Shown here: piece after piece, positions 1-7,480 of the stretch
Layout of the letters: every line of letters begins with the position of its first letter
Position numbering within the stretch: the stretch's first letter is position 1
Assembly (NCBI GenBank): GCA_038826135.1
Contig: JAWBON010000057.1
Coordinates: 1-7,480, forward strand
DNA length: 7,480 nt
DNA from: Candidatus Odinarchaeota archaeon
Lineage (GTDB): Archaea; Asgardarchaeota; Odinarchaeia; Odinarchaeales; Odinarchaeaceae
Reading direction: 5' to 3'
Notes under the pieces: generated by a model
What the model was told of the DNA's origin: nothing
Database searches by the model: none
Seen by the model: only the letters and a program-made list of their open reading frames with translations
Position numbers and translations under genes: made by a program

Positions 1-359
1 GGACAAACATAGCATATACCGATGCCTATACCGAATAAAAGACCGTATGTTATAACAAGACCTATAAGAGTTGTCATAGCTGCTGAGGACATAACCCCTA
101 TAGCCAGTATTATGCCACCTATTATAGTGGCTTTAATCGGACCTATACGCTGCTGCAGTTGACCGGCGAAAATCATTGTTAAACCGAATGCTAGAAGACC
201 GACACCGAAAACGAAGACTGTTAATTCACGGGGCATACCTAAGTAGGGTGATACGAATATAGTCATTACACCCCATGTGTAAATTGTCCCTAAAGCTAGT
301 TGAATTATAACAGCACCGACTACAACAATCCATCTTTTAAAAGGTTTATTCTCAGACAT
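1..359 (-). CDS. MFS transporter, oxalate:formate antiporter (OFA)-like family; N-terminal 119 aa, runs off the left edge
   Basis: Manual translation from ATG 359: MSENKPFKRWIVVVGAVIIQLALGTIYTWGVMTIFVSPYLGMPRELTVFVFGVGLLAFGLTMIFAGQLQQRIGPIKATIIGGIILAIGVMSSAAMTTLIGLVITYGLLFGIGIGICYVC. It has four hydrophobic helices, an MFS motif-A-like loop (AGQLQQRIGP) and OFA-type signatures (G.IY.W, YG...GIG.G..YV). A GGGAG Shine-Dalgarno lies 8 nt upstream. Substrate cannot be determined. Confidence 0.85.
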   Translation of the reverse strand, partial: MSENKPFKRWIVVVGAVIIQLALGTIYTWGVMTIFVSPYLGMPRELTVFVFGVGLLAFGLTMIFAGQLQQRIGPIKATIIGGIILAIGVMSSAAMTTLIGLVITYGLLFGIGIGICYVC

Positions 360-439
360 ATATGTGACTCCCTAAAATTGTAATCGAGTAATTAAATTTC
401 AGCTTTAAACAATCCTCCTTTAAAAGCTTTAGGTAGTTT

Positions 440-449
440 GAAGAAAAAA
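440..449 (-). terminator. Putative archaeal oligo-T terminator of the photolyase gene
   Basis: The minus strand reads TAA TAA TTTTTTCTTC directly after the photolyase ORF; archaeal intrinsic terminators are U tracts. Confidence 0.45.
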
Positions 450-452
450 TTA

Positions 453-1811
453 TTATCTCAAAGAATTAACTTTATCAATATATTTACTGAAAATTAATCG
501 CTTTTTTCTATCAGTCAGACCCATGAATCTAACTTTACCGAATATAGGTCTTTCAGGCCAGGGGCGGTCGTGTTTTCCAAAACACCAAGCGATACCAGCA
601 TAGCTGTTAGGATCCCTACCGTCAACCTCGTATTTATCATTTAAGTAAACAGCCCTGTTATAGGCTTCCTCGATTGTTTCAGACCATTCGATTATTTTCT
701 TACACCAGTACATTCTCATATAGCTGTGCATCTTCCCGGTTTTAACCATTTCAATTTGGCAAGCATTCCAAAGTTGATCGTGAGTTCGACCTTTCTCCAG
801 ATCTTCAAGCGAGTAAATATAAGGTCTTAAATCTCTCTCATGTATGGTTAAAGTTTTTTTAGCCCAGTCCGGAAGCGCTTGAATTGAATCATAATTAGAA
901 TTATAATAAACAAAGTTTATAGAAAGCTCCCGTCTCACCACTAACTCCTCAAGGTAGCTGTCTACACCAGGACTGTTCGATTTAATAACTTCGAGTGCTA
1001 TGTATAAAGGTGAGATCTGTCCGAAATGAAGATAAGGGCTCATACCAGATAAACAATTAATAGAAGGGTCATTTCTAAAATTAGGATAATCATCCAGTTT
1101 CTCCCTGATGAAACTTTTTAAAAAATGTTTAGCTTTACCTGTTCCCCCCTTCAGCGAATCTACAGGTTTCACATCTCTTAATATATTAAGCTTGGAGAGT
1201 GTAAGGTTGATGTCATCTATATCCAGTGACTGGAAATCCATGTTAAGGGAGGAAAATCTCGGCTTCAACTCGGGAAGCGGGATTAAATACTCATGAAGCT
1301 TACGGAAGATTTTAGGTCGGAAAGTAGCTGCCGAATATTCTTCTTTATTAGAAGCTTCTTCAACAGGTACTATTACATTTGTTTCAACCTGGATTAGAGG
1401 GCAAGCCACAGATGCTGCTGCTTTTTCACGCCAATCCCGCTCTATTCTGAGATAACCTCTGTCAACTACGATCAAATTAGCGTTTTCAGCGAATTCATTA
1501 ATAATTGAGGGAGGGTTCCCCTGACGGATTATAAGCAATATACCCCTGTTTTTGAGAGAGCTTTCAACTTCTCTGAGCCCTTCTAACATAAAATAATAGT
1601 GGCGTTCATTAGCTCGCGGAAAATTCTCTGTTAAAGTAAATAAAACAATCAGGGGAGTATGCATTTCATTAGCTTTTATTATCGCGTATTCAAGAGCGTG
1701 GTTATATTCACATCTATGAGATGCTTGCATCCAGTAAAGTATATAGCGCCCACTATAATTTACAGCTTTAGCATTAAGTAATTTTACTCTAGTATGTTGA
1801 ATTGAATCCAT
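453..1811 (-). CDS. phr: Class II CPD photolyase (deoxyribodipyrimidine photo-lyase)
   Basis: 452 aa with class II signatures: YWMQ..R...N.AL..A, SGMSPYLHFGQIS, EEL..RREL, GKMHSYMRMYWCKKI.EW, DGRDPNSYAGIAWC and ERPIFGKVRFM. The class II tryptophan-triad pattern is present (QLW, MYW, IEW). Confidence 0.95.
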   Translation of the reverse strand: MDSIQHTRVKLLNAKAVNYSGRYILYWMQASHRCEYNHALEYAIIKANEMHTPLIVLFTLTENFPRANERHYYFMLEGLREVESSLKNRGILLIIRQGNPPSIINEFAENANLIVVDRGYLRIERDWREKAAASVACPLIQVETNVIVPVEEASNKEEYSAATFRPKIFRKLHEYLIPLPELKPRFSSLNMDFQSLDIDDINLTLSKLNILRDVKPVDSLKGGTGKAKHFLKSFIREKLDDYPNFRNDPSINCLSGMSPYLHFGQISPLYIALEVIKSNSPGVDSYLEELVVRRELSINFVYYNSNYDSIQALPDWAKKTLTIHERDLRPYIYSLEDLEKGRTHDQLWNACQIEMVKTGKMHSYMRMYWCKKIIEWSETIEEAYNRAVYLNDKYEVDGRDPNSYAGIAWCFGKHDRPWPERPIFGKVRFMGLTDRKKRLIFSKYIDKVNSLR

Positions 1812-1922
1812 AATTATTTAACATGGTTTGGCTGGTACTATAATATTAATATTTAGGTTCTGTTAATTGAGTTAACGAAGGGTTAATAAGGTAGATTTTA
1901 TGTAATATAATTGATAATATTA

Positions 1923-1937
1923 TGTAGCGAAGCTACA
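1923..1937. repeat. Perfect inverted repeat TGTAGC-GAA-GCTACA upstream of the longin-GTPase gene (possible operator or hairpin)
   Basis: 6-bp arms with a 3-nt spacer, ending 15 nt before ATG 1953, in the divergent phr/GTPase intergenic region. Confidence 0.4.
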
Positions 1938-1952
1938 CAAAGATGATTAGAA

Positions 1953-2849
1953 ATGATCCATTCAATATACATAATGCGGAAAACTGGTGAAAACATATAT
2001 ACGAAAAAATACGAGCAGAGCAGCATAGATGATAATCTGATTTCAGGGTTCCTAAGCGCGCTTCAAAACTTTGTTTCAGAGGTAAGCAGCGGCGATGTTA
2101 TAAGAACTATAAAAACAGGGAACGTTAAATTCATCTATAATATCATCCATGATATAATAGTTGTAGCTGTAGCAGACCAGGAAGATGATGAGAAAAAAAT
2201 ACAGGAAAAAGTTGAGAAAATCGCTGAAATATTTTATAATAAATTTAAAGTAAACCTTGAAAACTGGACAGGGGATGTAAGCCCTTTTAAACCGTTCGAA
2301 GAAGATTTAGAGGACATAGTATCAGGAACTCTAAAAGTCTCATTAATAGGATACGGTGGCGTTGGGAAAACCACCATACTGAAACTTTTAAAAAACGAGG
2401 AAATACCACTGAAACATAATCCTACAATAGCCGTAGATATAAAACCGTTTAAAGAAATAAATATCTCAGGTTTAAAGCTGATAGTATGGGATTTCGCCGG
2501 TCAGGAAAGATTTGAAAGCCTCTGGAAAATGCTGATAAAAGGGACAGATCTGATAATAGTTGTTGTCGACTCTACAATGATCAACCTGTTAAGAACAAGG
2601 AGAAAAATTATGAAAATGATAGAGGAGGAGAACCCTAAAGCAAAAGTGATAGTGATAGCTAATAAACAAGATCTTCCGAAAGCGATAAAACCGAATATAA
2701 TAGAAGACTTACTTAACGCCCCCACATATGGTTTCGTAGCTATAGATCCATCATATAGAAGAGATATTCTAAAGATAATAAACGAAAAAATAGATGAACT
2801 TTCAAAAGCAAGTAAAAAAGAGAGCAGCGTTGTCGCCAGCGCTGCATAA
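1953..2849 (+). CDS. N-terminal longin-like domain fused to a Ras-superfamily small GTPase (Asgard Arf/Rab-related)
   Basis: GTPase boxes: G1 GYGGVGKTT, G2 NPTI, G3 WDFAGQERF, G4 NKQD and a G5-like FVAI. The N-terminal ~120 aa (MIHSIYIMRKTG...LISGFLSALQNFVSEV...IVVAVAD...IAEIFYNKF) follows the beta-beta-alpha-beta-beta-beta-alpha longin pattern. Confidence 0.85.
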   Translation: MIHSIYIMRKTGENIYTKKYEQSSIDDNLISGFLSALQNFVSEVSSGDVIRTIKTGNVKFIYNIIHDIIVVAVADQEDDEKKIQEKVEKIAEIFYNKFKVNLENWTGDVSPFKPFEEDLEDIVSGTLKVSLIGYGGVGKTTILKLLKNEEIPLKHNPTIAVDIKPFKEINISGLKLIVWDFAGQERFESLWKMLIKGTDLIIVVVDSTMINLLRTRRKIMKMIEEENPKAKVIVIANKQDLPKAIKPNIIEDLLNAPTYGFVAIDPSYRRDILKIINEKIDELSKASKKESSVVASAA

Positions 2850-2861
2850 ATCATAGAAGAT

Positions 2862-3332
2862 TTATCTTCTTCTAAAACCGCGTTTACGCTGATCCCTACC
2901 GCCGTATCCTCTCTGAGACGGCGCGTTGAATGGTCTCCTAAACCGAGGCTGCTCAAATACTTGATCAGACAGGTTCTTATCAGAGTTAACTGTTCCAAAA
3001 TCCTCAGATGTAATCTCTTCAATACTACCGTATTTACCAGTATTCAACCTCATAGAACCCTTAAATAATGTAACATAACCATTGTTAATCTGATATATTC
3101 CACCGTCTTTAAGATTATCTATATCCTCATTCCATAGTGTTAAAAGTATCGACGCTGTCTCATCACCGACTAAGGCTTCAGCAACTCTAAGTGTTTCACC
3201 GGATAGTTTAGACACTACTTCTCTAGGTTCCGTCTTAGACACTACCTTAACCTTTAAATTAACATTTTTAGAGTTAGGTTTTAACTCTTCAACAGTTATA
3301 AACTGTACCACATTCTCGTTTTCTTCAGACAT
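2862..3332 (-). CDS. ssb: Single-stranded DNA-binding protein, single OB fold (crenarchaeal SSB / hSSB1-like)
   Basis: LKPNSKNVNLKVKV, VGDETASILLTLW and NGYVTLFKGSMRLNTG match the Sulfolobus SSB/hSSB1 OB fold, including the base-stacking W, Y and F positions. An Arg/Gly-rich tail follows. Confidence 0.9.
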   Translation of the reverse strand: MSEENENVVQFITVEELKPNSKNVNLKVKVVSKTEPREVVSKLSGETLRVAEALVGDETASILLTLWNEDIDNLKDGGIYQINNGYVTLFKGSMRLNTGKYGSIEEITSEDFGTVNSDKNLSDQVFEQPRFRRPFNAPSQRGYGGRDQRKRGFRRR

Positions 3333-3399
3333 TCAAACTCAACTCATATAGATTTTTAACGCAAAATTATAAGTTAATTTCGCGCAGATTTTTATAAGC

Positions 3400-3500
3400 G
3401 ACCGGGTGATTATGAACGGCTTCCCGCTTAAAATGAGCTTCCAGATCTTATCCAACGGAGGCTTCATACAGCAGGCTCTTAGAGCCGTAATCCCCGCATC
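3400..3500. ncRNA. Candidate structured non-coding RNA or cis-regulatory leader (family unknown, strand unresolved)
   Basis: 51 G+C in 3401-3500 versus 13/50 (3341-3390) and 11/50 (3511-3560) in the flanks. Nested complementary segments form a long irregular hairpin of about 28 bp, and BRE/TATA-like elements point into it from both sides. Confidence 0.4.
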
Positions 3501-3540
3501 CATCCTATTTTAACAGACACTATCATATAAACGTTACGTT

Positions 3541-3560
3541 AAAAATCACTATATAAAATA
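3541..3560 (-). terminator. Putative T-rich terminator of the ESCRT-III operon
   Basis: After the TAG stop the minus strand reads TGTTATTTTATATAGTGATTTTT (T4 and T5 tracts). Confidence 0.35.
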
Positions 3561-3563
3561 ACA

Positions 3564-4205
3564 CTACTCTTTCTCCCGCAGATCTTCCTCTGACAAGGCT
3601 TTTTTCAACTCTTCAACCTCTCGTTTAACCCTCTCACGCTTAGACAACTCCTCCGGCGTCTCACGGGGGGCTTCAGGTAGAATAGCTGTTTCTTCAACAG
3701 CAACTTCACTCTGCAATTTTTCGAATTCTCTATCAATCATTGATTCATCAGCCTCACCCAGTTCAAGAGCCTGCGCGAGCTCGCTCTGTTTAGCTTCAAT
3801 CTCACTAACTAATTCCTGCGTCTCCACTCGTGTATCAATAGCATCCTCGATTGTTAAGATTTTAGTAGCGTTAGAAAGCAGTCTATTCGCTGATTTAAGA
3901 GCCCTATTCATAGCAACCGTGTCCTCAGCTGACTGAATGCTTTCAATCGTATCCTCTAATAGATCTATCTGCTTCTGGTACGTGTTAGAAAGAGTATTAT
4001 ATTTAATCCAGCGCTTAAGCTGACTGCGAGAAGCATCATTATTCCCCTGCTTTAAATATTTTTTAGCCGTTTCCCGGCTGGAAAGCGCCTTATTATAATA
4101 GTTTCTAGTCCGGAGCGTAAACTGGTTTATAGTAGACCTGAGACTGGCTATTGTCTCATCCTTAGATTCTTTTCTTTTCGGAAAAAGTTTTCTCCAAATA
4201 CCCAC
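3564..4205 (-). CDS. ESCRT-III subunit, Vps20/32/60 (Snf7/CHMP4-6-like, ESCRT-IIIB)
   Basis: Snf7-type helical hairpin (AKKYLKQGNNDASRSQLKR...LEDTIESIQSA), acidic C-terminal half and an LPEAP proline motif. The track starts at GTG 4238, but AGGGTGG sits 5 nt before in-frame GTG 4205, giving MGIWRKLFPKRK, so 4205 is preferred. Subfamily assignment is by motif resemblance only. Confidence 0.8.
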   Translation of the reverse strand: MGIWRKLFPKRKESKDETIASLRSTINQFTLRTRNYYNKALSSRETAKKYLKQGNNDASRSQLKRWIKYNTLSNTYQKQIDLLEDTIESIQSAEDTVAMNRALKSANRLLSNATKILTIEDAIDTRVETQELVSEIEAKQSELAQALELGEADESMIDREFEKLQSEVAVEETAILPEAPRETPEELSKRERVKREVEELKKALSEEDLREKE

Positions 4206-4243
4206 ACACACCACCCTACTAAATAAATTATCATCCACCGTTT

Positions 4244-4855
4244 TTAAACGTTAGATTCCCTCATTTTCTCAATTTCTTTTTCCAACTCTGAGATTTTACC
4301 TGAAGGTTCCGGCAAAGACTTCTCAGCTTCCACCGCTATCTCCTGATCTATCTCATTTAAAACTTTTTGAACATCATCTTGCTGAATCTGACTCACTTTA
4401 GTCATGGATAATATACGTCCTTCAGCTAAATCTTTAGCCCCGCTTATATGCTTCATACTCCGATCAATTTCCTCTAATGTTTTAGTTAAATCAGGGATCC
4501 TTATCCGATTTTTAATAACACCTATAACATATTTGAGACTCCCTAGAATCTTCGACACATCGCTTACAGCCTCATTCATTTTAAGATCAACTAGAAGACC
4601 CTCTATACCGAGACGGTAAGAGTCTATTTCAACCACTGAATTTTTAAATTTAAGATAGTGATTTATATATGTTTTAGCAGCCTCCTCATCCCCCTCTAAA
4701 CGTGCTTTCTTAGCTTTCACCCTATTGTTTTTAGCTTGTTTATCAAGCCTTGAACTTTCAATTTCAAGCTTTCTACAAACGATTTCAAGTTTCCTATTCA
4801 ACTCAGATAGTTTAGGCCCTCTTAACCAAGATACGAGTCTATCCAGAAATGGCAT
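4244..4855 (-). CDS. ESCRT-III subunit, Vps2/24/46 (CHMP1-3-like, ESCRT-IIIA)
   Basis: RKLEIESSRLDKQ and AKKARLEGDEEAAKTY resemble CHMP2/3 helices 1-2. Basic N-terminal half, acidic C-terminal half and a MIM1-like terminal helix (SELEKEIEKMR). AAGGTG Shine-Dalgarno 6 nt upstream of ATG 4855; adjacent to vps4. Confidence 0.82.
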   Translation of the reverse strand: MPFLDRLVSWLRGPKLSELNRKLEIVCRKLEIESSRLDKQAKNNRVKAKKARLEGDEEAAKTYINHYLKFKNSVVEIDSYRLGIEGLLVDLKMNEAVSDVSKILGSLKYVIGVIKNRIRIPDLTKTLEEIDRSMKHISGAKDLAEGRILSMTKVSQIQQDDVQKVLNEIDQEIAVEAEKSLPEPSGKISELEKEIEKMRESNV

Positions 4856-4978
4856 TTAAAGCACCTTTAAAGCAACTAATAATATACTATTCATTTTAAA
4901 CATTTAAACCATTACGCTGTAATAAAAATATTAAGAAGAATACATAGTTTATTTAAGTATACTTTATTAAATATAATT
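4856..4978. promoter_or_regulatory. Divergent promoter region between the ESCRT-III operon and vps4-vps25
   Basis: 123-bp very AT-rich spacer between head-to-head genes. TATA-like TTTATTTA (4948-4955) and TTTATTAA (4963-4970) on +, about 30 nt before ATG 4979 and ATG 4991; TTTAAATG (4908-4901) on -. Exact boxes are unverified. Confidence 0.5.
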
Positions 4979-6634
4979 ATGGGGTTTAATATGAGCCATG
5001 AACTATTCGAAGCTGCTTCTAAGATAGCTAAGGAGGCTGTTAAGTTAGATAAGCAGAATAACCCGCGGGAGGCGGCTGAAAAATATCTTAAAGCCGCAGA
5101 TGTTCTTATTAAACTTTCTAAAGTGACGGAAAACTCGACTCTTAAAAATATTTGCTTCAAAACAGCGGAGCAATATATTAAAAGAGCTAAAGAGCTTAGA
5201 AGAACAGCCCGAGGTAATTTCAAAGAGGATACGGGTTCTAGCGCAGATACCGGTGAAGTTGAATTAGCTGGAAATATTTCAGATATTATTTTAACAGAGA
5301 AGCCTTCTGTCCGCTGGAGTGATGTAGCCGATCTGAAGGAGGCGAAGCAGGCCCTCAGAGAAGCAGTGATACTGCCAATGCTCAGACCTGACCTTTTCAC
5401 AGGTGCAAGGGTACCTTGGCGTGGAATACTTTTATTCGGCCCACCAGGATGCGGCAAGTGCGTGTGTGAGGATGAAACCGTAATCACCGAGACAGGTGAG
5501 AGGGAGACAGCGGCGGAGATCTTCCATAAAGTGAAAAAACGGTTATTAACAGGAGGAGTCGGGGAGTATGTTTATACACCTGAGGGAGGCTTGAATCTGT
5601 TATCGGTAAATATTTCGGGAAAAATAGTGCCTGACAGGGTTTCATTCCTCTACACTAAAAAAGATGCTAAATGCCTCAGACTCAGATTAGAATACGGGGG
5701 CGATATAAAAATAGGTGAAAACCATCCACTATTATGCGCTAAAGAGAAAGGGTACACCTGGGTTAGGGGAAGCATGCTTCAACTTGGGGACCGAGTGGCG
5801 TATATTCAGAATATTAGTAAACGCCGTGAAAGATGCGTGAATAAATGGGTTAAGTTCCCGAAGATTATAGATATAGAAGTTTTTAAACAGGATATTTATG
5901 ATTTTGAAACAGTGAGAAATCACACGTATCTAATCGGGGAGGGTTTTATTTCACATAACACTTTTATTTCCAAAGCAGTGGCGAATGAGTCTAACGCGAC
6001 ATTCTTGAGCGCGGATGCTGCTACACTTGTCTCAAAATGGCTTGGTGAATCAGAGAAAGCTATCAAAAGTCTTTTCAACGCCGCCAGAGAGAACGCTCCG
6101 TCAATTATATTTATCGATGAAATTGACGCGATAGCTGGTACACGGGATGAGGATGAGGTTGGCGGTGAAAGGAGATTGAAAACACAGATGCTGATTGAAA
6201 TGGATGGTGTAAAAGAGTACAAGTCCAAGCAGCTTATGGTTTTAGGGGCTACTAATAGACCATGGGATATTGATCCAGCTTTTAGGAGAAGATTTGAAAG
6301 AAGAATATATATTCCCCTACCAGATAAAGACGCTAGAAAAGAAGTTTTCAAGTATCATTTGAAAGGAATAGATTTAGATGAAGATGTGGACTTAGATGAG
6401 TTAGCGGAGAAATCAGAGGGGTTCACTTCATCCGATATAGCTTTAATATGCCGTGAATCTGCGATGACACCTATACGGGAACTTGACGAACAGGGATTAC
6501 TTGAAAACGTTGACTGTAAACCGCGGCCTGTCAACAGGAGTGATCTAATCAGCTCGCTTACTAGGATAAAACCTGTAGTCACACCCAGCGAAATAAAGAG
6601 ATATGAAGAGTGGGCTTCCGAATACCGGAGTTGA
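4979..6634 (+). CDS. vps4: Vps4/CdvC AAA+ ATPase (MIT + AAA), intein-containing precursor
   Basis: N-terminal MIT domain (AKEAVKLDKQNNPREAAEKYLKAADVL), Walker A GPPGCGK|T split by an intein, pore loop SKWLGESEK, Walker B IIFIDEID, ATNRPW, arginine fingers AFRRRF and C-terminal helix EIKRYEEWASEY. Located between ESCRT-III and ESCRT-II genes. The true start may be ATG 4991. The spliced product is 384 aa (380 aa from 4991). Confidence 0.93.
   Translation: MGFNMSHELFEAASKIAKEAVKLDKQNNPREAAEKYLKAADVLIKLSKVTENSTLKNICFKTAEQYIKRAKELRRTARGNFKEDTGSSADTGEVELAGNISDIILTEKPSVRWSDVADLKEAKQALREAVILPMLRPDLFTGARVPWRGILLFGPPGCGKCVCEDETVITETGERETAAEIFHKVKKRLLTGGVGEYVYTPEGGLNLLSVNISGKIVPDRVSFLYTKKDAKCLRLRLEYGGDIKIGENHPLLCAKEKGYTWVRGSMLQLGDRVAYIQNISKRRERCVNKWVKFPKIIDIEVFKQDIYDFETVRNHTYLIGEGFISHNTFISKAVANESNATFLSADAATLVSKWLGESEKAIKSLFNAARENAPSIIFIDEIDAIAGTRDEDEVGGERRLKTQMLIEMDGVKEYKSKQLMVLGATNRPWDIDPAFRRRFERRIYIPLPDKDARKEVFKYHLKGIDLDEDVDLDELAEKSEGFTSSDIALICRESAMTPIRELDEQGLLENVDCKPRPVNRSDLISSLTRIKPVVTPSEIKRYEEWASEYRS
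5459..5959 (+). mobile_element. Mini-intein (167 aa, no homing endonuclease) in the Vps4 Walker A motif
   Basis: Begins with Cys (CVCEDETV, block A); block B-like IKIGENHPLL; WVRGSMLQLGDRV; block F IYDFETVRNHTY; ends GFISHN followed by Thr+1. Removing it restores GPPGCGKTFISKAVANE. The central linker is only about 14 aa, too short for a LAGLIDADG domain. Confidence 0.93.
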
Positions 6635-6660
6635 ATAATAGGAGTGAGAGGGGTTAACGG

Positions 6661-7359
6661 TTGGGTTCTAGCAGGGAGTTAGAAAAAACAAAGAGTAAAA
6701 AAGAAGAGTTAATGGAAACGATAGATAAGCTGAAAGAGGATTTAACATCTGACATGATTCAAACAAAGGAGAGTGTTTTAAAACCTCGAATGATCAATTT
6801 AAAAGAGATTGAGGAGATTAAAGAGGAGCCGTTAAGCCGTCAAATACCTTCTGAAGGATTCGATTGGGCTGTTAACCGTGAAAAATATCCTTGGATGTAT
6901 TGGATCCCGTCTAAAAACGAGGATGTTGAAAGCTGGTTGAACGAGTGGTCTGATTTCACTCTTCAATGGTTTAAAGCTAACAAGATACATATTATACCGT
7001 TCGCGGAGCTTATGGGTGAAAGACCCTTCATCTATCTTCAGAATAAGATTGATTCTCTAAAACTTATCATTGAAAAACTGATTTCTAGAAAATTCTGCTC
7101 GTATACAGGGGAAGACGGCAGGAGTATCCGAGTGTTTTGGCGCGGATACGAGGATTGGGGTGATTTAATATATAACTGGGCTTTAAAAAATGGCATGGTT
7201 GATTTCACACTTTTCGATATAATCGACTTAGAGGAGAGTACTGATAACTTTCACAGGCTGCCGCAAGAGGATTTGAAAAAAATTTTCAGTCTTCTAGTTA
7301 AAAATAAGAGAGCTGTTTGGATCAGTAAGAAAAACGCGCATATAAAAATATTATTTTAA
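6661..7359 (+). CDS. vps25: ESCRT-II subunit Vps25 with an N-terminal extension
   Basis: VFWRGYEDWGDLIYNW, FTLFDI and NFHRLPQEDL align by eye with human VPS25 (IMWRRPEEWGKLIYQW, FTLYEL, EFHGLDEATL), and YPWMY resembles the PPxY-like motifs. TTG start with GAGGGG 7 nt upstream, 26 nt after the vps4 stop; alternative ATG at 6712. Confidence 0.88.
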   Translation: MGSSRELEKTKSKKEELMETIDKLKEDLTSDMIQTKESVLKPRMINLKEIEEIKEEPLSRQIPSEGFDWAVNREKYPWMYWIPSKNEDVESWLNEWSDFTLQWFKANKIHIIPFAELMGERPFIYLQNKIDSLKLIIEKLISRKFCSYTGEDGRSIRVFWRGYEDWGDLIYNWALKNGMVDFTLFDIIDLEESTDNFHRLPQEDLKKIFSLLVKNKRAVWISKKNAHIKILF

Positions 7360-7374
7360 TAAAGCATTAACGAG

Positions 7375-7480
7375 TTACTTGTTTAAAAAAGCTGGAAAAT
7401 AATATTTTTTCCCATGTGAGTAACTTGAGTCAACTTTAGCCAGACCGTATTCAACCAGTTTAATCAATATCATATTAACT
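7375..7480 (-). CDS. C-terminal 34 aa of a probable ESCRT-II Vps22/Vps36 (EAP30 family) protein entering from the right edge
   Basis: Open frame from 7479 to TAA at 7377-7375: VNMILIKLVEYGLAKVDSSYSHGKKYYFPAFLNK*. It resembles the final winged-helix end of SNF8/Vps22 (L..L...GLA..D......Y..PA) and converges on vps25 with a 15-bp gap. Only a short fragment is visible. Confidence 0.62.
   Translation of the reverse strand, partial: VNMILIKLVEYGLAKVDSSYSHGKKYYFPAFLNK

Follow-up and report, generated by a model that had tools for sequence, protein, structure and literature searches.

From our analysis of a 7,480-nt stretch of DNA from an Odinarchaeia-like Asgard archaeon (contig JAWBON010000057.1, positions 1-7480, hereafter the window), we conclude that its vps4 gene encodes an AAA ATPase of the Vps4/CdvC type that is interrupted by a class 1 mini-intein, located between the lysine and the threonine of the Walker A motif (GPPGCGK/intein/T). 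At the N-terminal splice junction, the Walker A cysteine and the first residue of the intein form a Cys-x-x-Cys (CxxC) motif. An earlier note on this DNA had interpreted this motif as a possible redox gate of Vps4 maturation. Our comparisons indicate that the motif is probably an automatic by-product of the intein insertion site, which neither arose with the intein nor has been kept for it.

The vps4 precursor is encoded by a 551-codon open reading frame (ORF) at nt 4979-6634 (+), in the frame of which nt 5450-5467 (+; TGC GGC AAG TGC GTG TGT) are translated as the hexapeptide C-G-K-C-V-C across the N-terminal splice junction, as the earlier note had proposed. The intein comprises precursor residues 161-327 (nt 5459-5959, +; 167 aa), starts with C-V-C and ends with S-H-N, after which Thr follows. 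Its cysteines were correctly counted as five, at intein positions 1, 3, 72, 93 and 126. Excision of residues 161-327 joins GPPGCGK to TFISKAVA and gives GPPGCGKTFISKAVA, the same sequence as in two of three intein-free congeneric genomes, while the third has TFLSKAVA. Because excision yields the exact Walker A region of these two congeners, the insertion is read as precise and in frame and the boundaries of the intein are certain. The N-extein ends in seven residues, G-P-P-G-C-G-K (nt 5438-5458, +), that form the N-terminal part of Walker A; in intein-free orthologues, Thr follows them directly. The cysteine of this heptapeptide, Cys(-3) (residue 158; nt 5450-5452, +), is a native Walker A residue that is conserved in intein-free homologues and in other Asgard loci. 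Cys1 (Cys161; nt 5459-5461, +) is the splicing nucleophile in block A, and Cys3 (nt 5465-5467, +) is a non-catalytic residue that forms a C-x-C motif with Cys1.

The element is identified by sequence and model as a class 1 intein with the HINT fold: it has the block A Cys, the block B His, the block F Asp and the block G His-Asn followed by Thr+1, and its excision restores the host motif, from which we infer that it splices. Block B is represented by G-E-N-H (nt 5714-5725, +), with His89 and with Gly86 in place of the usual Thr of the TxxH motif, and aligns with T-P-S-H of the Pyrococcus horikoshii (Pho) RadA mini-intein. The block F region, D-I-Y-D-F-E ... N-H-T-Y-L, lies at nt 5891-5932 (+), with the D and F of D-F-E and the H and Y of H-T-Y invariant. 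Block G, S-H-N, together with Thr+1 (nt 5951-5962, +), has an H-N-T that is invariant in six sequences, and Thr+1 serves both as the C-extein nucleophile and as the Walker A Thr. Across the six homologous Vps4 inteins, Cys1, His89, D-F-E, H326, N327 and T328 (= Thr+1) are invariant, while Cys3 is found in four and is replaced by His in cluster P0004 and by Ser in cluster P0025. The Thr position of block B is occupied by Gly in all six (G-E-N-H, G-V-E-H or G-G-N-H; clusters P0002, P0003, P0004, P0008 and P0025 and the intein of the window), so that in this alignment an accessory residue deviates and the defining His is kept. The Thr of TxxH is held to strain the scissile bond, and the family-wide Gly might make the first splicing step slower.

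The Pfam profile Intein_splicing matches precursor residues 177-327 with 31.4 bits, below its cut-off of 35.8 bits, and the closest sequence with a solved structure is the Pho RadA mini-intein (E 4e-9). When the intein was modelled in AlphaFold2 together with flanks of 20 residues, its core reached predicted local distance difference test (pLDDT) values of 75-90, and the flanks were disordered. In a Foldseek search with the intein model, only inteins and other HINT domains were matched (E down to 1.9e-12), with the TvoVMA, TFIIB, CDC21-1 and RadA mini-inteins at the top (TM-score 0.7-0.78 on the target) and the redox-trapped DnaE intein 3nzm also among the matches. A homing endonuclease was considered and rejected, as the intein has only 167 aa and the model contains no inserted domain. 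The assignment of the gene to Vps4 with a P-loop intein, already made in the earlier note, is borne out.

The cysteine at position -3 does not depend on the intein. Among the 120 best Vps4 homologues, 108 are intein-free, and all 108 have GPPGCGKT. In a second sample, Vps4 loci from 29 further species of Asgard archaea (L013-L041), the motif is GPPGCGKT in 26, including the three intein-free congeners, and GPPGTGKT in the other three, all from a single family, f9. The source genome encodes three further AAA-type ATPases, all intein-free, with G[PE]PGCGKT. An intein at exactly this site of Vps4 is found in six protein clusters, five of them with Cys(-3). The sixth, P0025, reads GPPGTGK/C-I-S and thus has Thr(-3) and Ser3; its C-extein is nearest to the f9 lineage (69-71% similarity), whose intein-free Vps4 has GPPGTGKT. 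In these alignments, residue -3 tracks the lineage of the host, not the presence of the intein, and the Vps4 intein persists without CxxC, as P0025 indicates. An evolutionary association of Cys(-3) with intein presence, which would support redox trapping, was sought in these samples and not found. The other inteins of the source genome for which the N-terminal junction was read all start with Cys1, namely in the P-loop of an SMC-like protein (GPNGSGK/C), in the P-loop of MCM (GDPGTAK/C) and in RtcB (DIN/C). Since Cys(-3) is the norm of the lineage and the inteins read have Cys1, any Cys1 intein that inserts after this lysine gains a CxxC automatically, and by these counts the motif is not above the chance expectation for the site. 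The data favour the caveat attached to the earlier proposal, namely that GPPGCGKT is native and that the CxxC could be incidental. More generally, inteins land in conserved active-site motifs, which often contain Cys, and may receive a junction CxxC for free; a claim of regulation needs experiment.

We therefore propose that Cys(-3) is an ancestral Walker A residue of Asgard Vps4, common to other AAA ATPases of the source genome, and that Cys1 is an ordinary intein nucleophile. Most likely, the precursor splices constitutively in the reducing cytoplasm of an anaerobe, and adaptive gating would be lacking. Splicing would begin with an N-S acyl shift at Lys160-Cys161, followed by transesterification to Thr+1, cyclisation of Asn167 and an O-N shift, by which GPPGCGKT would be rebuilt. 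Oxidants probably slow splicing in vitro, as they do with most Cys1 inteins, but this would be a side effect and not a selected gate.

Several observations weigh against the view that the CxxC is a by-product. Within the Vps4 inteins, Cys3 turns up in two divergent branches (four of six, across 28% intein identity), for which a by-product gives no account, and it is absent from all three other junctions read in the source genome (C-V-T, C-L-A and C-L-S). The family-wide loss of the block B Thr could slow the first step and thereby leave time for a disulfide to form. The rubrerythrins and the photolyase encoded by the source genome fit an organism that now and then meets oxygen and light. With only about four independent lineages known to bear the intein, the missing co-variation is weak evidence. 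Finally, the cysteine of the Pyrococcus abyssi (Pab) MoaA system also seems to be native to its host motif; if so, a native origin does not exclude function.

The alternative that survives best, although we consider it on balance doubtful, places the redox sensitivity in the Walker A cysteine of the spliced enzyme, as in p97, and makes the intein irrelevant. It would explain why the cysteine is conserved over Asgard Vps4, even though Thr works at this position in mammalian VPS4B (GPPGTGK) and in one Asgard family, and the same Cys in other AAA ATPases of the source genome agrees with it. The D2 domain of p97/VCP has a Walker A motif identical to that of Asgard Vps4, GPPGCGKT, and its cysteine, Cys522, is S-glutathionylated under oxidative stress, which inhibits the ATPase (PMC5389986). 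The cysteine of p97 is a known target of oxidative stress in a classical AAA ATPase, but the modification concerns a mature, intein-free and eukaryotic enzyme. By analogy, the mature Vps4 of Asgard archaea may be sensitive to oxidants in its own right, which is compatible with a CxxC that is a by-product of insertion. Conservation of the residue may also, however, be simple lineage inertia. That Asgard Vps4 conserves the oxidation-prone Walker A cysteine of p97 is a useful finding.

The redox gate that the earlier note proposed appears unlikely. With such a gate, oxidative stress would lead to a disulfide between Cys158(-3) and Cys161(1), which removes the nucleophile, so that newly made Vps4 would be a precursor unable to bind ATP until thioredoxin or a return of anoxia releases it, and the recycling of ESCRT-III, a component of the endosomal sorting complex required for transport (ESCRT), would be coupled to the redox state. 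The precedent that was invoked is real: a native Cys-3/Cys1 disulfide is described for the Pab MoaA intein, and an engineered Cys-3 traps splicing of the Ssp DnaE intein (reviewed in PMC10663303 and PMC3922620). The C-x-x-C spacing in Vps4 is the same as in both, the intein model aligns to the trapped DnaE intein (3nzm), Gly(-2) should permit a tight turn, and a disulfide between Cys158 and Cys161 is sterically plausible and chemically possible. An oxidant-sensing P-loop intein is also documented, DnaBi1 of Mycobacterium smegmatis (Msm), which senses oxidative stress in vivo through another cysteine pair (PMC6195587).

Like the Vps4 intein, the MoaA intein and the DnaE construct with its C-P-G-C trap (PDB 3nzm) are class 1 inteins with a CxxC of Cys-3 and Cys1 over the N-terminal junction, and the host of the Pab MoaA intein is similarly an archaeal thermophile or anaerobe. 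For MoaA and DnaE, however, the disulfide and redox-dependent splicing have been demonstrated, whereas the Vps4 intein is known from its sequence. The intervening residues are G-K in the Vps4 junction and P-G in the DnaE trap, the host protein is an AAA ATPase and not an oxygen-labile enzyme, and Cys(-3) of Vps4 was demonstrably in place before the intein and does not depend on it. If such a trap did work in Vps4, it would be a second natural case of the MoaA type, and in the closest archaeal relatives of eukaryotes the ESCRT machinery would have a redox switch that acts after translation.

The ecology that can be read from the source genome (1.26 Mb, 93% complete) does not oppose a redox role. 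The genome encodes thioredoxins and rubrerythrins, and because thioredoxins are present, a reducing system exists. No peroxiredoxin above the cut-off, superoxide reductase, cytochrome bd or haem-copper oxidase was detected in this genome, at a completeness that makes these absences provisional. For an anaerobe with such limited defences, oxygen is a real stress, and a photolyase gene lies near vps4 (nt 453-1811, -; 452 aa; PF00875, E 6e-29). Thermophiles rich in disulfides have an excess of proteins with even numbers of cysteines. No such signature of cytoplasmic disulfides was seen over the source proteome, in which 436 proteins have even and 487 odd counts, and this absence of any sign that cytoplasmic disulfides are tolerated speaks against the proposed gate.

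So does the lack of co-variation between Cys(-3) and the intein, which persists as the same type of intein with Thr(-3). Inteins of thermophiles, moreover, usually splice fast at growth temperature, which leaves little time for trapping. Trapping would hit only nascent protein, while the pool of spliced Vps4 stays active, so that the physiological response would be slow; for the halt of ESCRT disassembly that the earlier note envisaged, either the Vps4 already spliced would have to be turned over as well, or the precursor would have to be dominant-negative. The motif and the precedent stand, but comparison lends the gate no support, with residue -3 following the lineage, an intein with Thr(-3) and Ser3 in existence and a proteome free of the disulfide signature. 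Redox gating of the Vps4 intein is a legitimate, yet unsupported, hypothesis. The small, thermophile-type mini-intein, with its natural CxxC junction and its natural control variants (Thr-3; His3 or Ser3), is a useful by-product of the comparison.

We regard it as improbable that Cys1 is instead controlled from within the intein, by Cys3 through the C-x-C motif or by Cys72, Cys93 or Cys126, either by disulfide formation, as happens in Msm DnaBi1, or because the C-x-x-C-x-C cluster binds Zn or Cu. Cys3 is unusual for block A and yet occurs in four of six Vps4 inteins, and Cys72 is kept in five and Cys93 in four of the six. In DnaBi1, a non-block cysteine 11-12 A away pairs with the catalytic Cys (PMC6195587). 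DnaBi1 resembles the Vps4 intein as a P-loop mini-intein with a Mg-coordinating Ser/Thr at +1, and oxidants reversibly block its splicing via a disulfide of the catalytic Cys, but it is a bacterial class 3 intein with an internal partner (Cys48-Cys118) and has been validated in vivo. On the other side, P0004 (His3) and P0025 (Ser3) manage without Cys3, and in the alignment with the Pho RadA intein a core Leu stands opposite Cys72, which is hence probably buried and structural. The recurrence of Cys3 and the loss of the block B Thr keep an internal partner, or a slow first step, alive at low probability. Least credible of all is an extension in which pulses of oxygen lead to a Cys158-Cys161 disulfide in vivo and the trapped precursor, which keeps the MIT domain and its surfaces for oligomerisation but does not bind ATP, acts as a dominant negative by sequestering ESCRT-III or by poisoning Vps4 hexamers; a small unspliced pool would then bring a quick pause of ESCRT-dependent membrane remodelling until reduction, with Cys3 as a resolving or back-up thiol.

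The intein appears to be an old and vertically inherited element. Identities of inteins and exteins fall together among the Vps4 homologues (99/100, 79/94, 43/76, 28/61 and 27/50 percent for intein/extein), and the G+C content of the intein (0.41) is close to that of the exteins (0.42-0.44). Because its composition matches that of the exteins and its divergence tracks theirs, the intein can be considered a long-resident passenger. In an extein tree of Vps4 homologues (P0001-P0011), obtained by a quick IQ-TREE search with support from the Shimodaira-Hasegawa-like approximate likelihood ratio test (SH-aLRT) only, the Odin clade is well supported; within it, the intein-bearing sequences are paraphyletic and intein-free clades are nested among them, and the genomes of three congeneric species encode Vps4 without the intein. 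The pattern fits an old mini-intein with vertical inheritance and at least two precise losses. A recent horizontal arrival was rejected, since the composition is the same as that of the exteins and the divergence of the intein parallels the extein tree.

The family is also divergent and rare. An exhaustive search of 1.84 billion representatives with the Vps4 intein returned a single strongly related cluster, P0004, in line with a family whose sequences have diverged widely, and the inteins of P0025 and P0008, used as queries, matched only themselves and brought no further intein-bearing relatives. A profile of the six precursors, compared with 400 genomes of the phylum, had a contiguous match in the source genome only, among the matches listed; the other best matches were intein-free and covered the C-extein only. 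The DNA pattern for G-P-P-G-x-G-K-C, with which Cys1 inteins in classical AAA P-loops were sought in the same 400 genomes, occurred once, at the locus of the window. The Vps4 intein is thus rare, with one occurrence in 400 genomes of the phylum. In the literature, we found no paper on an intein in CdvC, and among the papers listed that name both intein and Vps4, none concerns a natural Vps4 intein according to title and abstract.

P-loop inteins as such are well known from AAA+ proteins, MCM and RFC-S among them. The inteins at site a of archaeal MCM and site a of RFC-S have the same kind of AAA+ P-loop insertion point as the Vps4 intein, but their hosts are replication proteins, and Vps4/CdvC is missing from the hosts listed (Novikova et al. 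2016, PMC4760082). The closest solved relative, the Pho RadA mini-intein (PDB 2lqm, 4e2t and 4e2u), is a structural match and has roughly 170 aa, like the Vps4 intein. We take it to be inserted after the Walker A lysine, with Thr at +1. It differs in its host, a RadA recombinase, in its canonical T-x-x-H and in the lack of Cys at -3, and it is controlled by extein-intein contacts, temperature and single-stranded DNA, not by redox. Its insertion in the P-loop disrupts the ATPase function of RadA (PMC6195587).

The source genome itself carries at least seven inteins: the one in Vps4, one in an SMC-like protein, three in MCM and others in RtcB and in a polymerase-like frame. The MCM and SMC-like genes each have a P-loop intein as well, and three inteins of the genome stand directly after a Walker A lysine. 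The loci other than vps4 are G000 C14:1584-2150, C9:17314-21354, C16:2763-4205 and C90:706-1818.

The window is the ESCRT locus of this archaeon. The precursor ORF contains the Pfam domains MIT, AAA, AAA_lid_3 and Vps4_C besides the Intein_splicing match, and the C-extein (nt 5960-6634, +) holds the remaining AAA domain, the lid, Vps4_C and the stop codon. The spliced product has 384 aa. Vps4 of Candidatus Odinarchaeum yellowstonii shares 84% identity with the exteins, and among PDB entries the N-extein matches mammalian VPS4B best. The combination of MIT, a single AAA cassette, the lid and Vps4_C in an ESCRT neighbourhood identifies the protein as Vps4/CdvC, the meiotic-clade AAA ATPase of ESCRT. 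Upstream of vps4 lie two Snf7/ESCRT-III genes (nt 3564-4238 and nt 4244-4855, both -), and downstream an ESCRT-II Vps25-like gene (nt 6661-7359); genes for an Arf-like GTPase and for an OB-fold protein resembling single-stranded DNA-binding proteins are, like the photolyase gene, also close by. A scan of the window against Rfam, which included nt 3400-3500, gave zero families at the gathering score. An ORF at nt 4912-5487 (-) overlaps the splice-junction site and is antisense to the well-supported vps4 gene. Adjoining the ESCRT cluster, nt 1953-2849 (+) encode a protein of 298 aa in which a weakly longin-like N-terminal region (Fuz_longin_1, below the cut-off) is fused to a small GTPase domain of the Arf/Roc/Ras type.

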